A DNA stretch of 64,000 nucleotides from Candidatus Babelota bacterium (GCA_003511165.1 DOJW01000007.1:148324-212323), one strand, 5' to 3'. Counted from the first letter of the stretch, positions 41-51,649 are shown. Made by a program: numbers and translations. The notes: generated from the sequence alone by a model not told the origin.

Positions 41-67
41 GGCATCCTCGCATATGCGGGGATCCAT
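41..67. repeat. Solo copy of the GC-rich hairpin core repeat (ggcatcctcgcatatgcggggatccat) otherwise clustered at 34.3-35.1 kb
   Basis: Direct comparison with gtcatcctcgcgaatgcggggatccat at 34565-34590. The core is self-complementary (atcctcgc / gcggggat). Confidence 0.6.
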
Positions 68-6072: not shown

Positions 6073-6227
6073 TTGACCTTCTTTTTTGATTTTTATTTTT
6101 GTTAAAACTTTTTATTACAAGTTAATTTTTTTAAAATAACTTAAATTTTCTAAAATTCAATATTCCTTTTTCAAAACCCTTAGCCATCTTAGTCAACTCC
6201 TTGCATCTTTACTTTCGTTCGTACCCA

Positions 6228-6276
6228 TTCGACTACGCCATAAAATGGCTCCGCTCAGGGCAAACGAAAATTTAAA
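6228..6276. repeat. 49-nt hairpin module shared, in inverted orientation, with repeat island C (51234-51282)
   Basis: The reverse complement of 6228-6276 (cgtttgccctgagcggagccattttatggcgtagtcgaatgggtacgaa) matches 51234-51282 with 3 mismatches. Confidence 0.7.
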
Positions 6277-6359: not shown

Positions 6360-6900
6360 AGCCACCCCGGCTTAAAAGCCGGGGCTTCTAACTCATGAAA
6401 ACTATTTTTGATTTTGAACATATTTTTTTATCACTTCTTCATCACAACTTCCAACCGTCTCGGCAAAATATCCATCCGACCAAAGACTATCTCCCCAAAG
6501 AAATTCTTCTAACTCAGGAAACTCTTCTCTTATCTTTTTACTACTTCCACCCTTAAACAATTGTATTGCTCTTGCAACACTAGTTTTTGTGTCTAATTGC
6601 ACAATTGCATGTATATGATCAATCTGCACGTTAATTTCTTGTACTTGCCAGTTATTAACTTCTGCGCATTGAATTAATAGTTCCTTAATTCTATCCGCAA
6701 GCATCCCCTTTAAAATTCTTTTTCTATATTTTGGTATCCATATTATATGGTACATAAGCCTGTGTTTTGTATGTGAACCTAACCAATACTTTTTCATATT
6801 TAGGAGTATGCCATCTTTATTGGCGACTCGCAAAATCTCCGATTTTTGCTGCCTCGCCAAGTGGACTCGCATTCATCCCCAGGTTTAAAACCCTGGGGTT
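6360..6900 (-). mobile_element. IS200/IS605-family insertion sequence (tnpA only); exact ends not defined
   Basis: A Y1 transposase gene is flanked by subterminal GC hairpins: ccccggc-ttaaaa-gccgggg (6365-6384) and ccccagg-tttaaaac-cctgggg (6877-6898). It sits in the intergenic gap between the PP2C pseudogene and the MCE gene. Confidence 0.75.
6402..6872 (-). CDS. tnpA: IS200-type Y1 (HUH) transposase TnpA
   Basis: HTKHRLMYHIIWIPKYRKRIL, IDHIHAIVQL (HUH motif) and SDGYFAETVG (catalytic Tyr region). An alternative start at 6797 (MKKYW) gives 131 aa. The 6872 start is preceded by GGGGA, which lies inside the 6877-6898 hairpin. Confidence 0.9.
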   Translation of the reverse strand: MRVHLARQQKSEILRVANKDGILLNMKKYWLGSHTKHRLMYHIIWIPKYRKRILKGMLADRIKELLIQCAEVNNWQVQEINVQIDHIHAIVQLDTKTSVARAIQLFKGGSSKKIREEFPELEEFLWGDSLWSDGYFAETVGSCDEEVIKKYVQNQK

Positions 6901-13347: not shown

Positions 13348-14358
13348 ATGAAAATAAAAAATATAGTTATATTGGTAGTAGCTTTGGCAGCAATAATTAA
13401 CTTTGATAAAAACATTTTTGCAAAATCAAATATCTCCAAAAAAAATTATTTTACTGCGCATCCTTCAGTCAAATACAATGTCAATTTAAATAGCGAATAT
13501 AAAACACAGCAATTTAACACCGCACTAGAAAAGTATATAAAAGAAGAATACAACAGCAGTGACTATGCAGATTACATTTCACAAAACAGCGGGCACTTTC
13601 TCGAGCTTTTAAAAATTATAGACAATTTCAAATTGGGAGACGACTCCATCCCTTATTTTTATACAATATTCAAACTTTTCAACGACAAAATGAAATCATG
13701 CGAACTTGTAGATTACGCTGTTGTTCAATCAATTTTAGAAGAGATGCCACAAATTTTAAAACCTTATTTAAAAGCAGAAAACGTTGATGTCAAAACATTA
13801 ATTGAAAAGCAACTTGATTATCTAATTCAATCCAAAATGCAAACATACCTAAAACCAGTCAAAACACCAGTCAGCAACATAAAAAACTTTTCAAATAATT
13901 TAACACGCGAACTATCAACAACTTATCAAAACGAAAAAGATAAGATCGAAAATTTGTTTAAATTGAGAAGTATCGCAGTACGCTTTTTAGAAAATATAAT
14001 CGGTAAATCAGTCTGGAGCAAAAGCCACTATGAATCAATCTGGCCCGCTTTCACCAAAATCTCATTTTTGATTGATAATCTTTATAAATATGAAATCATT
14101 GATGATGAAGACGAAATAGACAGTCTAAAATGGTCGCTCGTTCATTCATTTTGCAAATTTATAGATATTGTCAGCATTGAACTTCCACTAGATTTTTACG
14201 AAGAAATCGAAGACGATCTTGTAAATAAAACAATTCCATTTTTAGAGGAAGAAGAACAAGATGCATTCATCAAAACAAAAAAAACAACCATCGGTGAATG
14301 CCTGCTAAAAACTAAGAGCCGAACTATTGGATATAAGAAGATGGGAATCATTTCATAA
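13348..14358 (+). CDS. Hypothetical secreted protein
   Basis: Full ORF with signal peptide MKIKNIVILVVALAAIINFDKNIFA. No family recognised. Confidence 0.55.
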   Translation: MKIKNIVILVVALAAIINFDKNIFAKSNISKKNYFTAHPSVKYNVNLNSEYKTQQFNTALEKYIKEEYNSSDYADYISQNSGHFLELLKIIDNFKLGDDSIPYFYTIFKLFNDKMKSCELVDYAVVQSILEEMPQILKPYLKAENVDVKTLIEKQLDYLIQSKMQTYLKPVKTPVSNIKNFSNNLTRELSTTYQNEKDKIENLFKLRSIAVRFLENIIGKSVWSKSHYESIWPAFTKISFLIDNLYKYEIIDDEDEIDSLKWSLVHSFCKFIDIVSIELPLDFYEEIEDDLVNKTIPFLEEEEQDAFIKTKKTTIGECLLKTKSRTIGYKKMGIIS

Positions 14359-14403
14359 GGAATTTATCATCCCTTATTTATATCCCAATTTTTAAAACTT
14401 AAT

Positions 14404-14862
14404 TTATATATTTATTCTTAGTTTATCTTTTAATTTATTCTGCTTTAAGTTTGTTTTTCTTTTTTCTTTAATCAAATTAGCTCCGCTAGGGCCAAGGGTG
14501 TTGATTTGAACACCCTTGGATCCCCAAACTAAAGAAGTTTCTTTAGAATCTCTGACGCCTGAAACTCCCGCATCCAGTCTAGCCCGGACTTCGCATAAAG
14601 CTATGTCGGGCTAGACTGGACTGCGGTTCTAACAGCCAGGCTAATTTGGAATCTACAAATTTATATTATAGAAATCCAGGAAAATATAATTATTAAATAC
14701 TGATCCAGCACTACCTGTTTGAGTCGGAGTACAACGTAGTTGTATCCCGGCGAGTTTAGTGCTGTAGAGATTTTAAAGAAACCTCTTTAATGTGTGATTG
14801 CAAAGGATGCACACCCATCCTTTGCCGCACAGCGCGTAGCTGCTAAGGATAAAAAAATAGAA
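14404..14862. repeat. GC-rich composite repeat island A (non-coding, modular hairpins)
   Basis: 14471-14535 is nearly identical to the reverse complement of 43643-43707. 14701-14830 is ~95% identical to 51368-51497. The end module cctttgcc..gctgctaaggataaaaa is shared with the island B left end (inverted) and the island C right end. GC-rich in an AT-rich background. Confidence 0.8.
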
Positions 14863-15065
14863 TAAAAAAGCATAAGAAAAATACCTAAAATACTAATAGG
14901 ATTTATAAAAACATCCCTTCCATACCTCTTAAAACCAAAAAACAATTAAATTCAAGGTTTTTTAAAACAATTTTTAACGCTAACTATCAAACCTTTAAGT
15001 TTTTCAAATTTCGCTTTATCATATTTGGATATAAAAATTAAAAACCAAATCTGTAAGGGAACAAT

Positions 15066-26871: not shown

Positions 26872-26970
26872 TACCTAATTTTTTATAAAAAAATTGCCAA
26901 GCTTTTCAGAAAATGTAGAATCTAATAAGGTAATTTAATGGTTAAATTAAAAGGAAAAAGGAACTTTTTT

Positions 26971-27951
26971 ATGATATCTAAAAAAATACACTCTTTTTTA
27001 GCAATACTTACAATGAGCTCCGCTTTAGTAAATATTAATGCTAGCGGCGAAGCAAATTCTGTAAAAAACATGGTAATCAATGCAACACCTGCAGTAAGAC
27101 TTTACAACGCAGGAAATTTCTACCTTGAAAACAGACTTCCTATAGACGGAATGAACAAAGTTCTTGAATTTACTTTAGAAAACAATGCAGCTGATGTTCT
27201 CACTGAATGGAAATGGAACTACGCTCTTTGCAAAAAAACAGAAAACAAATTTACTCCAGAAAGAATTGGCGGCCAAATCCTTAATTCAACATTCAAATTC
27301 TTCCATTTACTTTCACCAGATTTCGCATACAAAGGCACACCTATCGTCGATGAGTATTTAGCAGAATCTCCTTTCTTTGTGTCGCTTAAATCAGAAGATC
27401 TTAAAACAGTCATTAACTACATAGAATCAAAATTACAAAATAAAGTTGCAGAAATTAAACCAATATTACTTCTTGAATTAGATGACAAAGTAATAACTGA
27501 AAAAGAACTTGCTGCTAACGTAAAAGTAGATAAGAAAGACAAAGAATTCTTAATCTCTCACTTTACACTTGTTACAGAAGATGAAATAGCAGCCGCTAAA
27601 AAATTCTTCGCAACAAGTATCGATAACTTTAGAGATACAGTAAGCACAGTTGAAGGAAGTAGCCCTGAATTGAAATATGCAAATATCAGAGAAACTATCT
27701 ATCACGATTTACTTAAAAAATGTAAAGATTTCAAGATTGAAAAAATTGCAGCTCCTATTTTAGAAGGTTTAATTATCTCAGCTGTTGCGGCTGCGGCAGT
27801 AAAACTAAAACTAGTAAGCAAAGAAGCTTTAACAGCAGCTGCAACTACTATCGTAGCAACAGAATTATACAAATCATTGCGTCACACAGAAGAAGCTTCA
27901 CCTTACAAATCAATGCCTTTTAGAAGCGCAACCGCAAATCAAAGAATTTAA
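26971..27951 (+). CDS. Hypothetical secreted protein with C-terminal hydrophobic anchor
   Basis: Start placed at ATG 26971 after aaaggaaaaagg (MISKKIHSFLAILTMSSALVNINA). C-terminal segment GLIISAVAAAAV. No family recognised. Confidence 0.55.
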   Translation: MISKKIHSFLAILTMSSALVNINASGEANSVKNMVINATPAVRLYNAGNFYLENRLPIDGMNKVLEFTLENNAADVLTEWKWNYALCKKTENKFTPERIGGQILNSTFKFFHLLSPDFAYKGTPIVDEYLAESPFFVSLKSEDLKTVINYIESKLQNKVAEIKPILLLELDDKVITEKELAANVKVDKKDKEFLISHFTLVTEDEIAAAKKFFATSIDNFRDTVSTVEGSSPELKYANIRETIYHDLLKKCKDFKIEKIAAPILEGLIISAVAAAAVKLKLVSKEALTAAATTIVATELYKSLRHTEEASPYKSMPFRSATANQRI

Positions 27952-27972
27952 TTTAATTTAATTCTACAAAAT

Positions 27973-28008
27973 AAAAAGAGGTCGCAAATTTGCGACCTCT
28001 TTTTATTT
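27973..28008. terminator. Bidirectional rho-independent terminator between convergent genes
   Basis: 10-bp stem agaggtcgca (27977-27986) / tgcgacctct (27991-28000), flanked by an A-run and a T-run. Confidence 0.7.
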
Positions 28009-28032: not shown

Positions 28033-28764
28033 TTATTTTTTCTCAATCAATGCTAAAAATTCTTTATTGCCATCTGATCCAAAAATCGGTGAATCAATAA
28101 TTTGTTTTACTTCTAATCCAAACACTTTTACACCCTCTTCAATTTTTTTGATCACCTTTTGATGTAATCGTTTATCTCTCACCACGCCGCCTCGGCTAAG
28201 TTCATTTCTCTCAAGTTCAAATTGCGGCTTTATCAGTGCAATTATCTTCCCATCATTTGTCATCAGATTTACAACAGCTGACAAAACTTTCAGCAACGAA
28301 ATAAAAGACAAATCCAAAGTAACTAAATCCACTTTTTGCGGCAAACTTTGTAACTCTTTTAAGTTAGTCTTTTCGATCAAAACAAATCTCGGATCTTCAA
28401 CTAATTTTGAATTTGTTTGCCCAATTCCAACATCAACACCATAAACTTTGCTCGCGCCACTTTGAAGTAAGCAGTCACTAAACCCACCGGTTGAAACTCC
28501 ACAGTCAAGACAAATTAGTCCCGAAACATCGATTTTGAATTCTTGCAGTGCTTTCTCCAGCTTGTAACCACCACGACCAACATATTTTTGCACAGAAAAA
28601 TCTATTTCAAAATCAAAATCGGCAGGAACTTGCATTCCCGCCTTTTTCAAAACTTCATTGCGCGATTTCACGGCGCCTTGAGCAATCAAATTTTGTATTT
28701 TGTTACGACTCAATTCTGGATATTTTCCCAAAATCAAAATGTCTAGTCTAATTTTATCGCTCAT
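28033..28764 (-). CDS. tlyA: TlyA-family rRNA 2'-O-ribose methyltransferase (S4 + FtsJ domains)
   Basis: RLDILI...SRNKIQNLIAQGAV (S4-like), YVGRGGYKLEKAL, CLDCGVSTGGFSDCLLQSGASKVYGVDVG. Confidence 0.85.
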   Translation of the reverse strand: MSDKIRLDILILGKYPELSRNKIQNLIAQGAVKSRNEVLKKAGMQVPADFDFEIDFSVQKYVGRGGYKLEKALQEFKIDVSGLICLDCGVSTGGFSDCLLQSGASKVYGVDVGIGQTNSKLVEDPRFVLIEKTNLKELQSLPQKVDLVTLDLSFISLLKVLSAVVNLMTNDGKIIALIKPQFELERNELSRGGVVRDKRLHQKVIKKIEEGVKVFGLEVKQIIDSPIFGSDGNKEFLALIEKK

Positions 28765-33334: not shown

Positions 33335-33371
33335 TTTCTGATTTAATTAAATGTTGATGGAGATAAATATT

Positions 33372-34238
33372 ATGAATTTTTTTAAATCAATTTGGTTTTG
33401 TTTGTTTCTGTGTTTAGTTGGTAACAACATAAATTTGTCAGCAACAGTTATTACATTGGAAAATACAAAAATAGAAAACTACAAACTAGAACAAATAAAT
33501 TTAGAAAAAATAAAAGAGCTAACGGCGGAATTCGAATCTAAAGAAACAACTAAGAATTGGGTTAAACGTGCGATCGTTACAACCGCAATACTCACAACCA
33601 TAGGTATAATAACTTACGAATGTTTTTTAAAGGGAAAATCTAAAACCTCTTCCAATGAATCTTCTCCAAAAACTGCTCTTAATGGTTGCCCAGGAATTCA
33701 TATACCAACAACTCGTGATAAAGTAGAAGATTGGGTTGTTTATATTACTCTAGGATCATTAACTATTCCTCTTGGAAACTGTTTCGACAAGGGAATTACA
33801 GAATCTTACAATAAAATCAGTAGTTGGTGGGGATCCAAAGGATTTTCGCCTGCATTATTTTTGCAACAATGTCAGCAAAATATTAGCTTAATGCAAAACA
33901 ACTTTGAAGGCATAATAAACTTACAAAACGACACTGCTTATTCGAATTTTTATTTAACTCGAGTCATCGAAACACATAATGCGCTTGTAGGTTCAATAGA
34001 ATGTTTAATAGCATCTTCGTTTGCATTATCAAATAATAAAAACAATAAAAACTGGTTATTAAGTGATCAAAATGGATTAATTTTAGAAATGGAAAGCCTA
34101 AGAACATTTTTAGACAAAATACTCCATCAAAATCCTGTTTCCATCGATTTAATAGAACTAAAAAATCATCTAAACAGTTTATTATTAAAAATACAACGAT
34201 TAAATATTGATTTTAGAATCGCACCCGAAAATGAATAA
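33372..34238 (+). CDS. Hypothetical secreted/membrane protein
   Basis: Start placed at ATG 33372 (MNFFKSIWFCLFLCLVGNNINLSA). Internal TM AIVTTAILTTIGIITY. No family recognised. Confidence 0.5.
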   Translation: MNFFKSIWFCLFLCLVGNNINLSATVITLENTKIENYKLEQINLEKIKELTAEFESKETTKNWVKRAIVTTAILTTIGIITYECFLKGKSKTSSNESSPKTALNGCPGIHIPTTRDKVEDWVVYITLGSLTIPLGNCFDKGITESYNKISSWWGSKGFSPALFLQQCQQNISLMQNNFEGIINLQNDTAYSNFYLTRVIETHNALVGSIECLIASSFALSNNKNNKNWLLSDQNGLILEMESLRTFLDKILHQNPVSIDLIELKNHLNSLLLKIQRLNIDFRIAPENE

Positions 34239-34287
34239 TTTTTTATATTTGTACAATTCTAAATTTATGAATATTTACAATATTTTC

Positions 34288-34402
34288 CTGGATCCCCGCA
34301 TTCGCGAGGATGACAGTGAGAGAAATATATATTGTAATTATTCCTCATTTTCAGAAGGAATTAGCAACCGATCCCGTCATCCTCGCGAATGCGGGGATCC
34401 AG
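34288..34402. repeat. 115-bp MITE-like element with perfect 27-bp terminal inverted repeats
   Basis: ctggatccccgcattcgcgaggatgac (34288-34314) is the exact reverse complement of gtcatcctcgcgaatgcggggatccag (34376-34402). Confidence 0.8.
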
Positions 34403-34470
34403 TCTTTATAGATCCAATCAAGGATGAAGATAAGATCCTATCAAGTAGTTCACAAAAATTGCACACACCC

Positions 34471-34590
34471 AATTCAAGCAATATCAAATTTGACAAAGTC
34501 CCACGTCATCCTCGCGAATTGCATATGTCTCATTCAAGCGATATCAGAATTGATAGTGTCCTCCGTCATCCTCGCGAATGCGGGGATCCA
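34471..34590 (+). repeat. Two tandem ~60-nt units ending in the same hairpin core (first copy truncated)
   Basis: aattcaagcaatatcaaatttgacaaagtcccacgtcatcctcgcgaatt... followed by cattcaagcgatatcagaattgatagtgtcctccgtcatcctcgcgaatgcggggatcca. A third unit lies at 35008-35066. Confidence 0.75.
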
Positions 34591-34620
34591 TTTCAAAATT
34601 TATACAAAAGAAATACCACA

Positions 34621-35103
34621 ATGAAAACCTTTTATGTTTATATTACTTGTTCTAAAAAAAATGGAACCTTATATATTGGGATGACCAATGATCTTACAAG
34701 GCGCATGCAAGAACATAAAAACAAATTAATTAAAGGATTCACAAAAAAATATTCGGTAAATTTGCTTGTATACTATGAAACATTTGAATCAATAATTGAT
34801 GCAATTAAAAGAGAAAAGCAATTAAAAAAATGGAAACGTGAATGGAAGATGCACTTTATCGAAAAGATCAATCCCAATTGGAAAGATTTAAGTGAAACCG
34901 ATATTTTCCTGGATCCCCGCATTCGCGAGGATGACAATAAGGAAAATATGAATTTTACATATTCTTCAGCAACTAACACCGATAACTTTAATATTGGCTC
35001 CCTCCCTAATTCAAGCGATATCAAAATTGACCAAGTCCCACGTCATCCTCGCGAATGCGGGGATCCAGTCTTCATTGCTCCAAACAAGGAAGAAAATGAA
35101 TAA
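34621..35103 (+). CDS. Small stand-alone GIY-YIG nuclease-domain protein (conserved core ~34621-34895; the C-terminal tail reads through repeat DNA)
   Basis: MKTFYVYITCSKKNGTLYIGMTNDLTRRMQEHK...REKQLKKWKREWK contains the GIY (VYI), YIG, Arg and Glu positions of the GIY-YIG fold. There is no in-frame stop until 35103, so the true C-terminus is uncertain. Confidence 0.7.
   Translation: MKTFYVYITCSKKNGTLYIGMTNDLTRRMQEHKNKLIKGFTKKYSVNLLVYYETFESIIDAIKREKQLKKWKREWKMHFIEKINPNWKDLSETDIFLDPRIREDDNKENMNFTYSSATNTDNFNIGSLPNSSDIKIDQVPRHPRECGDPVFIAPNKEENE
34919..35068. repeat. 150-bp MITE-like element with the same perfect 27-bp terminal inverted repeats
   Basis: ctggatccccgcattcgcgaggatgac (34919-34945) and gtcatcctcgcgaatgcggggatccag (35042-35068). 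Confidence 0.8.
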
Positions 35104-35935
35104 AAAATTTTTAATAATCTTTTTTTCAATTTTTCCATCTTTTACTTTAAATGGGTGTAAGTGGTGCACACAATGGAACCAAAACACACAAAATCTGAAC
35201 ATGCAAACAGAAAACAAAATCAATAAAGAATTAACAAAATCGCAAACTCCAACAAGCAATAACAATGAAGCTATCACAAAAAAAAACAATACAACGCAAA
35301 ATTCCGCTCTAAAAACAAAACAAGAAAAAACAATTTTCTATAAAAATTATTTAAAAAAATATTATCCACGAGCGCTGGTCATTTCCGACTATTTTTTCGA
35401 AATGTGTCCGATCGCAATAGATCAAGCGCTACAAGAATTAACGCTTATCCTTAGCGAAAAAGAATGGTTTTATTATCAAGATAAAAAAAGTGGATTTCGT
35501 GGCGGCGAATTTTGGGAAGTAACCCTAAAACAATGCAATACTATCGCGCTTAATTTAGAAAGCGCAAAAGTAAATGGTGAAACAGGCGAAATAATCAAAA
35601 GTTCACCAACAGAACAGTGTGATAATTACTTTGACAACGAAAATATAAATTTAAATCAATCGCTTTTCGAATTTTTTCAAACTCACAACTTAGTAGCATA
35701 TGAACAATTTTATGCGCATTTTGCAGACCGCATTGTAGAACTTTTCAACGAAGCCATAAAACTAAAAAATATTAATGCCGCATACGATTACGATTTATTA
35801 TTTAATTCGATTTTGCAATTTTTAAAAGATTCACCACTCTATGCAACGTATCAAAACGCTTCCAAAACGCACAAAGAGCTTTCTGAAATTTTATCTAATG
35901 AACTAGGTAATAACTATGCTCATAAAAATTTTTAA
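35096..35935 (+). CDS. Hypothetical protein, possible lipoprotein
   Basis: Start placed at ATG 35096 after aaggaag (MNKKFLIIFFSIFPSFTLNGC). The ORF-track start at 34994 lies in repeat DNA. Confidence 0.55.
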   Translation: MNKKFLIIFFSIFPSFTLNGCKWCTQWNQNTQNLNMQTENKINKELTKSQTPTSNNNEAITKKNNTTQNSALKTKQEKTIFYKNYLKKYYPRALVISDYFFEMCPIAIDQALQELTLILSEKEWFYYQDKKSGFRGGEFWEVTLKQCNTIALNLESAKVNGETGEIIKSSPTEQCDNYFDNENINLNQSLFEFFQTHNLVAYEQFYAHFADRIVELFNEAIKLKNINAAYDYDLLFNSILQFLKDSPLYATYQNASKTHKELSEILSNELGNNYAHKNF

Positions 35936-43196: not shown

Positions 43197-43282
43197 ACAA
43201 TCCATGTTTTGTCTAATTTTAATTAAATATTTTTTAAATTTTAAAATTTTTGATATTAATTTCTTCTTCCGTTTCTTTCTTT

Positions 43283-43762
43283 TTTTATTTTTATCTTTAG
43301 CTGCTCCCGCAGTGGGGCAAGGAGATTTTGTCGCAAAAACCTCCTTGCATCCTCCGTGCGCCAAAAGAGGACTTTTGGATTTCCTACAACGCTAAACTAT
43401 CTGGATGCAACTACGTTGCACTGCGATAGTAGCGTTGCAATGCGGATACACAAATTTTATTTACTGGGTTTAGAACTTTTGCGAAAATCTATTTTATATT
43501 TCCTTTATTTTTCTAAATTTGAATTGTTGAAAAATTTAGAAAAACGTCTTTATGAGAATATAGGATTCCAAATTAGCGCTACCTGTTTGAACTGCAGTCC
43601 AGTTTTACTGGATGCAGGAGTTTAGCGCGTAGAGAGATTACAAAGAAACCTCTTTGTTTTGGGGATCCAAGGGTGTTCAAATCAACACCCTTGGCCCTAG
43701 CGGAGCTAATTTGATTAAAAAAAAAGTAAAACAAACTTAAAGCAGAATAATTTTAAATAAAC
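43283..43762. repeat. GC-rich composite repeat island B (inverted relative to island A)
   Basis: The left end (43283-43325) is the reverse complement of the A/C right-end module. 43497-43560 is ~90% identical to 51296-51360. 43643-43707 is the reverse complement of 14471-14535. Confidence 0.8.
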
Positions 43763-43864
43763 GGAAGAAGAATAGAATTAAATTAAATTAAGAAAATTAG
43801 GTAAAAAAATAAGGGACCATTTCTGATCCCTTTGTCCTTTTATCAAATATTTTTGAAAAAAGAT

Positions 43865-50814: not shown

Positions 50815-51527
50815 TTTATTATTCTACTTTAAGTTTGTTTTTTAATTTTATTTTGTCAAAGATTCTACCCGCCCAGACTTCGCATAAAGCTTCGTCGGGT
50901 AAACTATGGGCCAAGGGCGCTCAAAATACAGCCCCCTTGGATCCCCAAACTAAAGAGAAATATCTTTGGAATCTCTGACGTGCAAAATTTATTTATTCTT
51001 AGTTTATCTTTTAATTTATTTTTATCTTTGGATTGCTACACGCAAGGTGACAGAGAGGATTATACGCAAAATCCTCTCTGTACTCTCCTATGCGCAAAAA
51101 GAGACTTTTGGATTTCCTTCAACGCAACGCTAAACTGTCTGGTCACAATTTCATTGTGCTGCGACAGTAGCCTTGCAAATAAGGATCCACAATAGATACA
51201 ATAGACCTCCCCTGAAACCAGACATAAAAAATCCGTTTGCCCTGAGCGAAGCCTTTTTATGGCGTAGTCGAATGGGTACAAACGGCATAATATGTATCTT
51301 CCTTTATTTTTCTAAATTTGAATTGTTGAAAAATTTAGAAAAACGTCTTAATGAGAATGTAAGATTCTGATCCAGCACTATCTGTTTGAGTCGGAGTACA
51401 ACGTAGTTGTATCCCGGCGAGTTTAGTGCTGTAGAGATTTTAAAGAAACCTCTTTAATGCGTGATTGCAAAGGGTGCGCATTCATCCTTTGCCCCCCTGC
51501 GGGAGCAGCCAGAAATAAAAAAATAGA
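50815..51527. repeat. GC-rich composite repeat island C (largest; contains A-type left modules, B-type internal modules and the 6228-6276 module)
   Basis: 50988-51018 is identical to 14410-14438. 50908-50980 is homologous to 14488-14560. 51085-51180 is homologous to 43350-43440. 51234-51282 is the reverse complement of 6228-6276. 51368-51497 is homologous to 14701-14830. Confidence 0.8.
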
Positions 51528-51649
51528 TAAAAGAAACAGAAGAAGAATTAGAAAACAAACTTAAAACAGAATGACGTCATAAATTAAAAATAAAGAAATG
51601 AAGGAAGAGTTAATTAACAAACAAAAAAAGAATTTAGATAAAACAGGAT

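Follow-up and report, generated by a model that had tools for sequence, protein, structure and literature searches.

Organization of the locus

The window, the whole 64,000-nucleotide stretch of DNA analysed here (Candidatus Babelota bacterium, GCA_003511165.1 DOJW01000007.1:148324-212323), has a GC content of about 32% and is identical to contig LBPE01000004.1 of GCA_000989975.1, assigned to Candidatus Dependentiae (TM6). Near its middle, an 853-bp block (34239-35091) lies between two genes, g2 (33351-34238) and g3 (35096-35935), neither of which has a Pfam match. The gene after g3, g4, is a conserved 1013-aa gene with orthologs throughout Dependentiae/Babeliales. The block contains a GIY-YIG nuclease gene, here called ssn, together with five copies of a 27-28-nt hairpin repeat that lie around the gene within less than 800 bp, where 0.02 copies are expected by chance.

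The two ends of the block are marked by a 12-nt direct repeat. The 12-mer GAAAATGAATAA occurs twice in the 64-kb window, against an expectation of 0.12, and both occurrences are at the block ends. The left copy (34227-34238, plus strand) holds the stop codon of g2 and an ATG at 34231. The right copy (35092-35103, plus strand) holds the ATG of g3 at 35096 and, at 35101-35103, the stop codon of the ssn reading frame.

The ssn gene and its product

The core of ssn (34621-34905, plus strand) comprises 95 codons and encodes a single-domain GIY-YIG nuclease. Pfam PF01541 (GIY-YIG) covers residues 4-76 with an E value of 8e-17, and no other domain is found. As the preliminary description had it, the frame that starts at 34621 runs past the core with no stop of its own; the first stop is at 35101-35103, which gives a product of 160 aa. 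Relatives of 93-100 aa align with the 95-aa core over its full length. A search with the core returns 3871 matches from many phyla, the best at 60-75% identity, and hundreds of proteins of 93-100 aa are 57-75% identical to it. Homolog copies are also present on IMG/VR contigs and large plasmids, and phage genomes yield two weak Staphylococcus phage matches and no others. The window protein matches none of the PADLOC defence models, and no second GIY-YIG paralog is found in the 64-kb window, a divergent query included.

Small GIY-YIG proteins of this kind have been characterized as the Ssn family of ssDNA nucleases, which is associated with NTS/SRM repeats (Chenal et al. 2025, Nat Commun 16:2388, PMC11893778). 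The system occurs in Neisseria, Wolbachia, Rickettsia, and others, across many phyla, and SRM-rich genomes are enriched in symbionts (PMC11893778). SsnA of N. meningitidis is a 94-aa single-domain GIY-YIG protein (CDD cd10448, GIY-YIG_unchar_3) that binds the 28-nt NTS CGTCATTCCCGCGMAVGCGGGAATCYRG as ssDNA only and on one strand only, and makes its cut a few nt upstream of the NTS, ignoring duplex DNA and RNA (PMC11893778). In Neisseria, SsnA lowers transformation by NTS-bearing DNA (PMC11893778).

To stand in for N. meningitidis SsnA (CAX49033.1), we use the 94-aa N. gonorrhoeae ortholog (L219 1489-1773), taken from PLSDB records that are chromosomes mislabelled as plasmids. This ortholog has NTS copies on its flanks and carries Y6, Y17, and E64 at the positions mutated in PMC11893778. 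A BLASTP alignment with the window protein covers 85 of 94 residues at 53% identity (E 6e-34), and a tblastn match between the two is found with an E value of 2e-24 in a 7.3-Gb collection. Residues Y7, Y18, and E65 of the window protein correspond in this alignment to Y6, Y17, and E64 of the ortholog and are invariant in 25 relatives. The alignment falls within the homology threshold applied to Ssn proteins in PMC11893778 (more than 75% of the query aligned, E < 1e-10). The 53% identity to the N. gonorrhoeae ortholog is lower than the stricter level of at least 60% identity to N. meningitidis SsnA, which is an optional stringency level and not a family boundary (PMC11893778). A putative place of the window protein in cd10448 is suggested indirectly by its strong matches to NTS-flanked relatives and its weak ones to UPF0213 structures.

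Hairpin repeats at the locus

The published SRM search pattern, HGTCWYN(0-2)YYVSBRHN(0-5)WNVSBRGN(0-2)RNCYNB (PMC11893778), has five matches, all of them full copies and all at 34288-35068, three upstream and two downstream of the gene, where 0.02 matches are expected. SRM 1 (34288-34315, minus strand, antisense to the gene) and SRM 2 (34375-34402, plus strand, sense) are the left and right arms of a 115-bp inverted pair. SRM 3 (34564-34591, plus strand, sense) ends 29 nt ahead of the ATG of ssn and is the canonical upstream SRM. SRM 4 (34909-34936, minus strand, antisense), the canonical downstream SRM, follows directly after the ssn core, and SRM 5 (35041-35068, plus strand, sense) is the right arm of a 160-bp pair that extends from SRM 4 (34909-35068). 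The repeat of the window is identical to the Neisseria NTS consensus CGTCATTCCCGCGMAVGCGGGAATCYRG at 24 of 28 positions.

An exact-match search gives the same picture. The 27-mer CTGGATCCCCGCATTCGCGAGGATGAC is found without mismatch at 34288-34314(+), 34376-34402(-), 34909-34935(+), and 35042-35068(-), the strands here being those of the 27-mer, so that SRM 1 and SRM 4 contain it in the forward direction. A copy with 26 of 27 positions identical is at 34565-34591(-), again by the strand of the 27-mer, and no copy is expected in shuffled sequence. The 115-bp element at 34288-34402 thus ends in exact inverted 27-mers, as had been described. The second element with inverted ends is likewise real, except that it starts at 34909 and is 160 bp long, rather than starting at 34919 with a length of 150 bp. 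Homology between the 115-bp and 160-bp pairs continues outside the inverted ends, for 8 nt on the left side and for about 29 nt on the right side.

Five exact copies of the 20-nt hairpin core are present in the locus. The self-complementarity of the core, with one T.G pair, is borne out by folding: as ssDNA, the sense strand GTCATCCTCGCGAATGCGGGGATCC forms an 8-bp stem including the T.G pair with a predicted energy of -6.4 kcal/mol, and the complementary strand folds worse (-4.6 kcal/mol). The two tandem units of about 60 nt noticed earlier are also real. In an alignment, they form a duplication of a 60-nt unit at 34459-34578 (plus strand), with copies at 34459-34518 and 34519-34578. Each unit consists of a leader of about 35 nt and the 5' part of an SRM, and the junction of the units is inside the hairpin loop, the first unit having the 5' half of the hairpin only (34505-34519).

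A solo core had been placed at 41-67. A copy of the hairpin core is indeed present at 44-63, within a degenerate SRM-like hairpin (43-65, plus strand) that keeps the stem and has two mismatches in the loop (ATAT for GAAT). It falls outside the SRM pattern because it has GGC for GTC ahead of the stem. This degenerate hairpin sits in an intergenic spacer, 34 kb from the ssn block. In 74 kb of the genome, there are five SRM copies, all inside the block, and one degenerate copy. Since the SRM is not expanded in these 74 kb, a genome-wide role is not evident.

Association of SRMs with ssn genes in relatives

We examined the surroundings of 80 metagenomic loci that encode relatives with 57-71% identity, to which 8 viral-contig loci were added, giving 88 loci. 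An SRM lies within 400 bp of the gene in 45 of the 80 metagenomic loci, and SRMs lie on both sides in 18 of the 80; in the published survey across bacteria, Ssn homologs have at least one flanking SRM in 71% and SRMs on both sides in 42% (PMC11893778). Over the 88 loci, there are 1.21 SRMs per kb within 400 bp of the gene and 0.047 per kb beyond that distance, a 26-fold difference. The co-localization of repeats and GIY-YIG genes that the preliminary description proposed to look for is therefore observed when it is counted from the gene.

The orientation of the repeats follows a rule. In the relatives, 30 of 33 loci have their closest upstream SRM in sense orientation, at a median of 21 nt ahead of the start; on the downstream side, the closest SRM is antisense in 36 of 41 loci, at a median of 17 nt past the core. 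The canonical cassette can thus be written [SRM>]-ssn-[<SRM], both SRMs having their GTCAT ends on the outside. At the locus studied here, SRM 3 at 34564-34591(+) and SRM 4 at 34909-34936(-) form this bracket. In addition, several homologs that have been over-extended by gene callers carry end peptides encoded by the hairpin (RPREGGDP, VIPANEGIQ, LDPRIREDD), suggesting that the link between gene and repeat is general. LDPRIREDD is what SRM 4 of the window encodes when read in frame, and the same tail peptide is found in homolog P0007.

The hairpin is also widespread in its own right. A 19-base hairpin pattern has exact matches in at least 120 stretches, spread over very many phyla, with one genome per species scanned; among the matches listed, the hosts include Patescibacteria, all classes of Proteobacteria, Chlorobi, Bacteroidota, Leptospirales, Abditibacteria, Babeliales, and others. 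The conserved consensus, GT-CATCCTCGCG-NNN-GCGGGGATCC-AG, which we take to be the dRS3 type of Neisseria repeat, reaches into the unpaired flanks (GTC and C). Such conservation across phyla suits a motif that is constrained by a conserved protein. Of 50 adjacent SRM pairs counted over 120 diverse genome loci, 35 are gene-less doublets in heads-out arrangement, about 21 nt apart, and heads-in pairs are rare (5/50).

A GIY-YIG gene lies beside the hairpin in one of 120 hairpin-anchored loci, out of the at least 120 found. An abundant core with no enrichment near GIY-YIG genes had been named as the observation that would speak against a link. The count of 1/120 agrees with it in a trivial sense only and is expected, because a single gene serves many repeats; seen from the protein side, SRMs are 26 times denser near the gene.

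Assignment to the Ssn system

Taken together, the locus is very probably a member of the Ssn system, consisting of a GIY-YIG gene and its cognate SRMs in an 853-bp block that is inserted between conserved Dependentiae genes. The hairpin repeat is most likely what the encoded nuclease recognizes. The view that the nuclease and the hairpin repeats belong together is thus supported, both by the published Ssn/SRM system and by the 26-fold enrichment of SRMs near the genes of relatives. The comparison, offered with that view, to small stand-alone GIY-YIG genes amid GC-rich palindromic repeats in other host-associated bacteria corresponds to the Ssn/NTS/SRM system (PMC11893778). Because the pairing of Ssn and SRM was published in 2025, the locus does not represent a new class.

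By homology with SsnA, the window protein may cleave ssDNA specifically and may have a cellular role. The predicted Ssn would bind the sense strand 5'-CGTCATCCTCGCGAATGCGGGGATCCAG only when this strand is single-stranded and folded, and it is predicted to cut the same strand, a few nt to the 5' side of CGTCATCC. The better folding of the sense strand agrees with such strand specificity. Duplex DNA, RNA, and the complementary strand would not be substrates. As the SRMs of the bracket point outward, the predicted cuts are just outside the gene and on opposite strands. Candidate roles would include trimming or restricting SRM-bearing ssDNA that arises in DNA uptake, replication, or recombination.

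The locus is of value as a clean and compact example from a deeply branching, host-associated phylum. With one gene, five cognate repeats, conserved neighbours, and empty junctions in relatives, it is a convenient case in which to study whether Ssn cassettes move. Two simple, checkable regularities, the rule on SRM orientation and the prevalence of gene-less doublets facing heads-out, bear on the same question.

Probable insertion and possible mobility of the block

The adjacency of g3 and g4 is confirmed by sequence in three related Dependentiae, L214 (54% protein identity), L217, and L218 (both 42%). Sequence matches show the full g1-g2-g3-g4 order in L214; for L217 and L218, the match at the g2 position is by size and place only, without tblastn support. 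The spacer ahead of g3 is 12-57 nt in these three relatives versus 857 nt in the window. The comparison of presence and absence in related genomes, proposed earlier, therefore finds the block missing at the same gene junction in three relatives, which are distant ones. L214 carries an identical 28-nt SRM at another site.

The absence of the block from the junctions of three relatives, together with the 12-nt direct repeat, makes the block look like an insertion with target duplication. The pre-insertion site would read ...CGCACCC-GAAAATGAATAA-AAAATTTTTAAT..., with the g2 stop and the g3 start overlapping. Because the relatives are distant (42-54% protein identity), loss of the block in their lineages may also account for the difference.

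The preliminary description went further and took the nuclease and the repeats to form a mobile or selfish unit, with the two inverted pairs as small elements bounded by terminal inverted repeats. One part of this stands and another does not. The block as a whole is insertion-like, and mobility of the whole ssn unit is plausible but unproven; the same mobility or selfishness of Ssn units has been raised as a hypothesis in PMC11893778. The two pairs, on the other hand, do not behave as discrete mobile elements. Their homology continues past the ends of the inverted repeats, their heads-in topology is the rare one (5/50), and the target-site duplications that had been suggested as a check are absent, as no direct repeats flank either pair. 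The pairs also do not fit a MITE or an insertion sequence: there is no target-site duplication at the inverted-repeat ends, and the block encodes a GIY-YIG domain only, with no transposase domain of the DDE or HUH/Y1 type and no serine or tyrosine recombinase domain.

A reading of the ssn block and its SRM bracket as a selfish element that moves autonomously, in the manner of an insertion sequence or of REPIN/RAYT, is possible, if somewhat unlikely. Such an element would be mobilized by Ssn nicks at the outward SRMs, and the gene-less doublets would be non-autonomous derivatives or landing sites. This account overlaps with membership in the Ssn system and does not exclude it. The empty junctions and the 12-nt repeat at both block ends are in its favour, as are the strict, TIR-like orientation of the bracket, the gene-less heads-out doublets, the 60-75% identity between proteins of different phyla, and the homolog copies on IMG/VR contigs and large plasmids. 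Chenal et al. raised it as well, and the role demonstrated in Neisseria is nevertheless a host one, the modulation of transformation (PMC11893778). The relatives with an empty site are distant, and the target site here contains no SRM. In the cassettes of 21 relatives, flanking direct repeats do not exceed chance, with the sole exception of L187 (10 nt, p = 0.015). Moreover, we know of no strand-transfer, ligation, or transposition activity of a 95-aa GIY-YIG nuclease.

We also consider it unlikely that the SRM bracket and ssn form a mobile cassette that is the GIY-YIG counterpart of REPIN/RAYT and of which the window copy is a fresh insertion with a 12-nt target duplication. Such a cassette would be copied into new sites or gene-less SRM doublets via Ssn nicks on ssDNA. 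The open frame, running from the duplicated g3 start to a stop that overlaps the true g3 start, would be retained, and the retained frame would preserve translational coupling to g3.

The long open reading frame

An open frame of 298 codons (34207-35103, plus strand) spans the tandem units, the ssn core, and every one of the five SRMs. Of its codons, 138 precede the ATG at 34621; these 414 nt contain no stop in the ssn frame versus 5-12 in each of the other five frames. When the spacers alone are shuffled, such openness has P = 2.5e-4 upstream and P = 0.044 downstream. The spacings of the SRMs are 87, 189, 345, and 132, all of them multiples of three. Within this frame, a 290-codon frame opens at ATG 34231, a duplicate of the g3 start supplied by the left 12-mer, and the frame ends at the stop inside the right 12-mer, overlapping the true g3 start. 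Public annotations of the locus give 290 aa in GCA_000989975.1 and 160 aa in a TPA record.

The real product might then be a long protein of 290-298 aa, in which the peptides encoded by the repeats (RHPRECGDP, LDPRIREDD) are translated and functional. Such a protein would recall the palindromic elements inserted in frame in Rickettsia genes. The openness of 298 codons at 32% GC, the lack of stops in this frame only, the spacings in multiples of three, and the public annotation of 290 aa agree with a long product, which we nonetheless regard as improbable on the following grounds. The N-terminal 138 aa have no Pfam match. Among relatives, each of the three frames is used to read the upstream SRM (RPREGGDP, VIPANEGIQ, SFP..GNP), and the conserved start is MK(T/N/Q)(F/Y)YVYI, preceded by a median of 16.5 open codons. 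Finally, the region upstream of the start consists of in-frame duplicates of the tail block, so that the openness of the frame could be inherited from recent duplication.

The openness over 298 codons may have any of three possible sources: inheritance from recent duplications, selection for translation into g3, or a real long product. The 160-aa and 290-aa gene calls are probably too long, as a result of read-through into repeat DNA. A tail of 65 residues, or a head of 138 residues, of repeat-derived sequence could impair the product, which is a counterpoint to a functional Ssn.

Other explanations and rejected candidates

A free-standing GIY-YIG homing endonuclease of the I-TevI/Seg type, which would cut duplex DNA and spread by double-strand-break repair with the hairpins being incidental, is very unlikely. 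The block is specific to this lineage, as would suit such an enzyme, and TIGR01453, a model of group I intron endonucleases, matches the protein weakly. However, the score of this match, 22.2 bits, is far under the 56-bit cutoff, the protein has neither a C-terminal DNA-binding domain nor any second domain, the association with SRMs is strong and oriented, and the characterized homolog does not cleave dsDNA (PMC11893778).

A role of the hairpins as transcription terminators, or as regulatory stem-loops of another kind with no connection to the nuclease, is extremely unlikely. They are stems rich in GC within AT-rich intergenic DNA, with one copy directly past the coding core, but they have no T-run, no terminator-like sites are found in 34100-35300, copies occur in both orientations and also upstream of the gene, and SRMs are 26-fold enriched beside ssn genes. 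Conservation across phyla also extends to the sequence and not to the structure alone, taking in the unpaired GTC and C flanks.

Two further candidates were rejected. An IS200-like Y1 transposase gene (6402-6872) was considered as a mobilizer of the SRMs, and its flanking hairpins differ from them. A scan of 33500-35800 with Rfam gives sub-threshold microRNA-like matches on the long inverted pairs, which are artefacts of any long hairpin. A search of the literature for GIY-YIG proteins with repetitive extragenic palindromic or REPIN repeats found nothing relevant.

Comparison with known systems

The small GIY-YIG proteins of the UPF0213/SLX1-like group, such as EF2693 (1ywl) and BH0048 (1zg2), resemble the window protein in fold family and size. 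These two are the only solved structures with sequence similarity to it. As the similarity is weak (E values of 1.6e-4 for 1ywl and 4e-3 for 1zg2), the window protein belongs to a different subfamily. To our knowledge, no association with repeats is known for UPF0213/SLX1-like proteins.

Neisserial intergenic mosaic elements (NIMEs) are RS units bounded by dRS3 repeats. The block is similar in being an intergenic mosaic of units of about 60 nt that end in a hairpin repeat and are arranged in tandem and in inverted pairs. Unlike NIMEs, which exist in hundreds of copies, it forms a single small cluster. The strict 20-bp dRS3 consensus, ATTCCC-N8-GGGAAT, is not matched by the window core, which reads ATCCTC-GCGAATGC-GGGGAT and conforms to the broader SRM pattern.

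REP/REPIN repeats accompany RAYT genes, which encode IS200/IS605-like Y1 transposases. These systems have been compared with Ssn/SRM (PMC11893778). As in REPIN/RAYT, one gene is bracketed by inverted hairpin repeats that are also dispersed as gene-less doublets, and the hairpin would be recognized on ssDNA, as is expected of the window protein from SsnA. The enzymes differ, the window protein being a GIY-YIG hydrolytic nuclease and not an HUH/Y1 transposase (PF01797). The window has a PF01797 Y1 gene of its own, at 6402-6872, and the hairpins of that gene are unrelated to the SRM.

The closest counterpart is the Ssn family itself. The locus differs from the described members (PMC11893778) in that its host phylum, Dependentiae, is not mentioned there, its stem is ATCCTCGC/GCGGGGAT instead of ATTCCCGC/GCGGGAAT, its gene has lost or lacks a stop codon of its own and reads through two repeats, and its repeat shows no expansion over the 74 kb covered. 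In common with them, it has a single-domain core of about 95 aa, the same catalytic residues, SRMs on both sides of the gene, and a host that is a symbiont-type bacterium.

Other repeats in the window

The window contains an IS200-like element (6365-6899), in which a Y1 transposase gene (6402-6872, minus strand; PF01797, E 2.5e-38) is bracketed by hairpins of its own. The hairpin at 6365-6385 reads CCCCGGCTTAAAAGCCGGGG, and the one at 6878-6899 reads CCCCAGGTTTAAAACCCTGGGG. The Ssn-related motif (SRM) repeats, the hairpin repeats around the gene for the small GIY-YIG nuclease Ssn, are unrelated to these hairpins. A second dispersed repeat family is intergenic and occurs at window positions 14370-14882, 43255-43816, and 50987-51548, and at 13822-14455 of locus L001. 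Its copies are 100-370 bp in length and share 74-92% identity, and neither an SRM nor an obvious ORF is present in the copies from the window and L001.

Two palindromes are also present. A 51-nt imperfect palindrome, CGTTTGCCCTGAGCGRAGCC...GGCGTAGTCGAATGGGTACRAACG, occurs at 6216-6266 and 51234-51284, and the two window copies are mutually inverted and 94% identical. A perfect 40-nt palindrome at 27969-28008 is positioned in the spacer between the convergent ORFs 26938-27951 (plus strand) and 28033-28764 (minus strand), where it possibly serves as a bidirectional terminator.

SRMs and the assembly of the ssn locus

Two Logan short-read assemblies of the same organism, L212 and L213, break at window positions 35043-35050, which lie within an SRM, showing that the repeats fragment assemblies at the ssn locus. 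Among the database records, PLSDB lists two 2.17-Mb Neisseria gonorrhoeae chromosomes (NZ_CP119140.1 and NZ_CP119142.1) as plasmids, which is a database error.

Related nuclease genes in other contigs

A different small GIY-YIG gene is located, with its repeats, in the region 4780-5400 of L216, a contig from a related member of the Dependentiae. It encodes a 94-aa protein with 34% identity to the window Ssn, and lies 3' of the ortholog of g4, the conserved gene downstream of the ssn block in the window. The gene is flanked by a GC-rich repeat of another kind, suggesting that the Dependentiae phylum holds several nuclease/repeat pairs. The repeats adjoining it are of the GCCCTGAG/TCGAAGGG type, of which the 51-nt palindrome of the window is reminiscent.

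Relatives of Ssn with 43-53% identity are encoded on eight IMG/VR contigs, which are viral by database classification but may be misclassified host DNA. In three of the eight (L205, L206, and L208), the ssn gene lies in the canonical bracket, with one outward-pointing SRM on each side.
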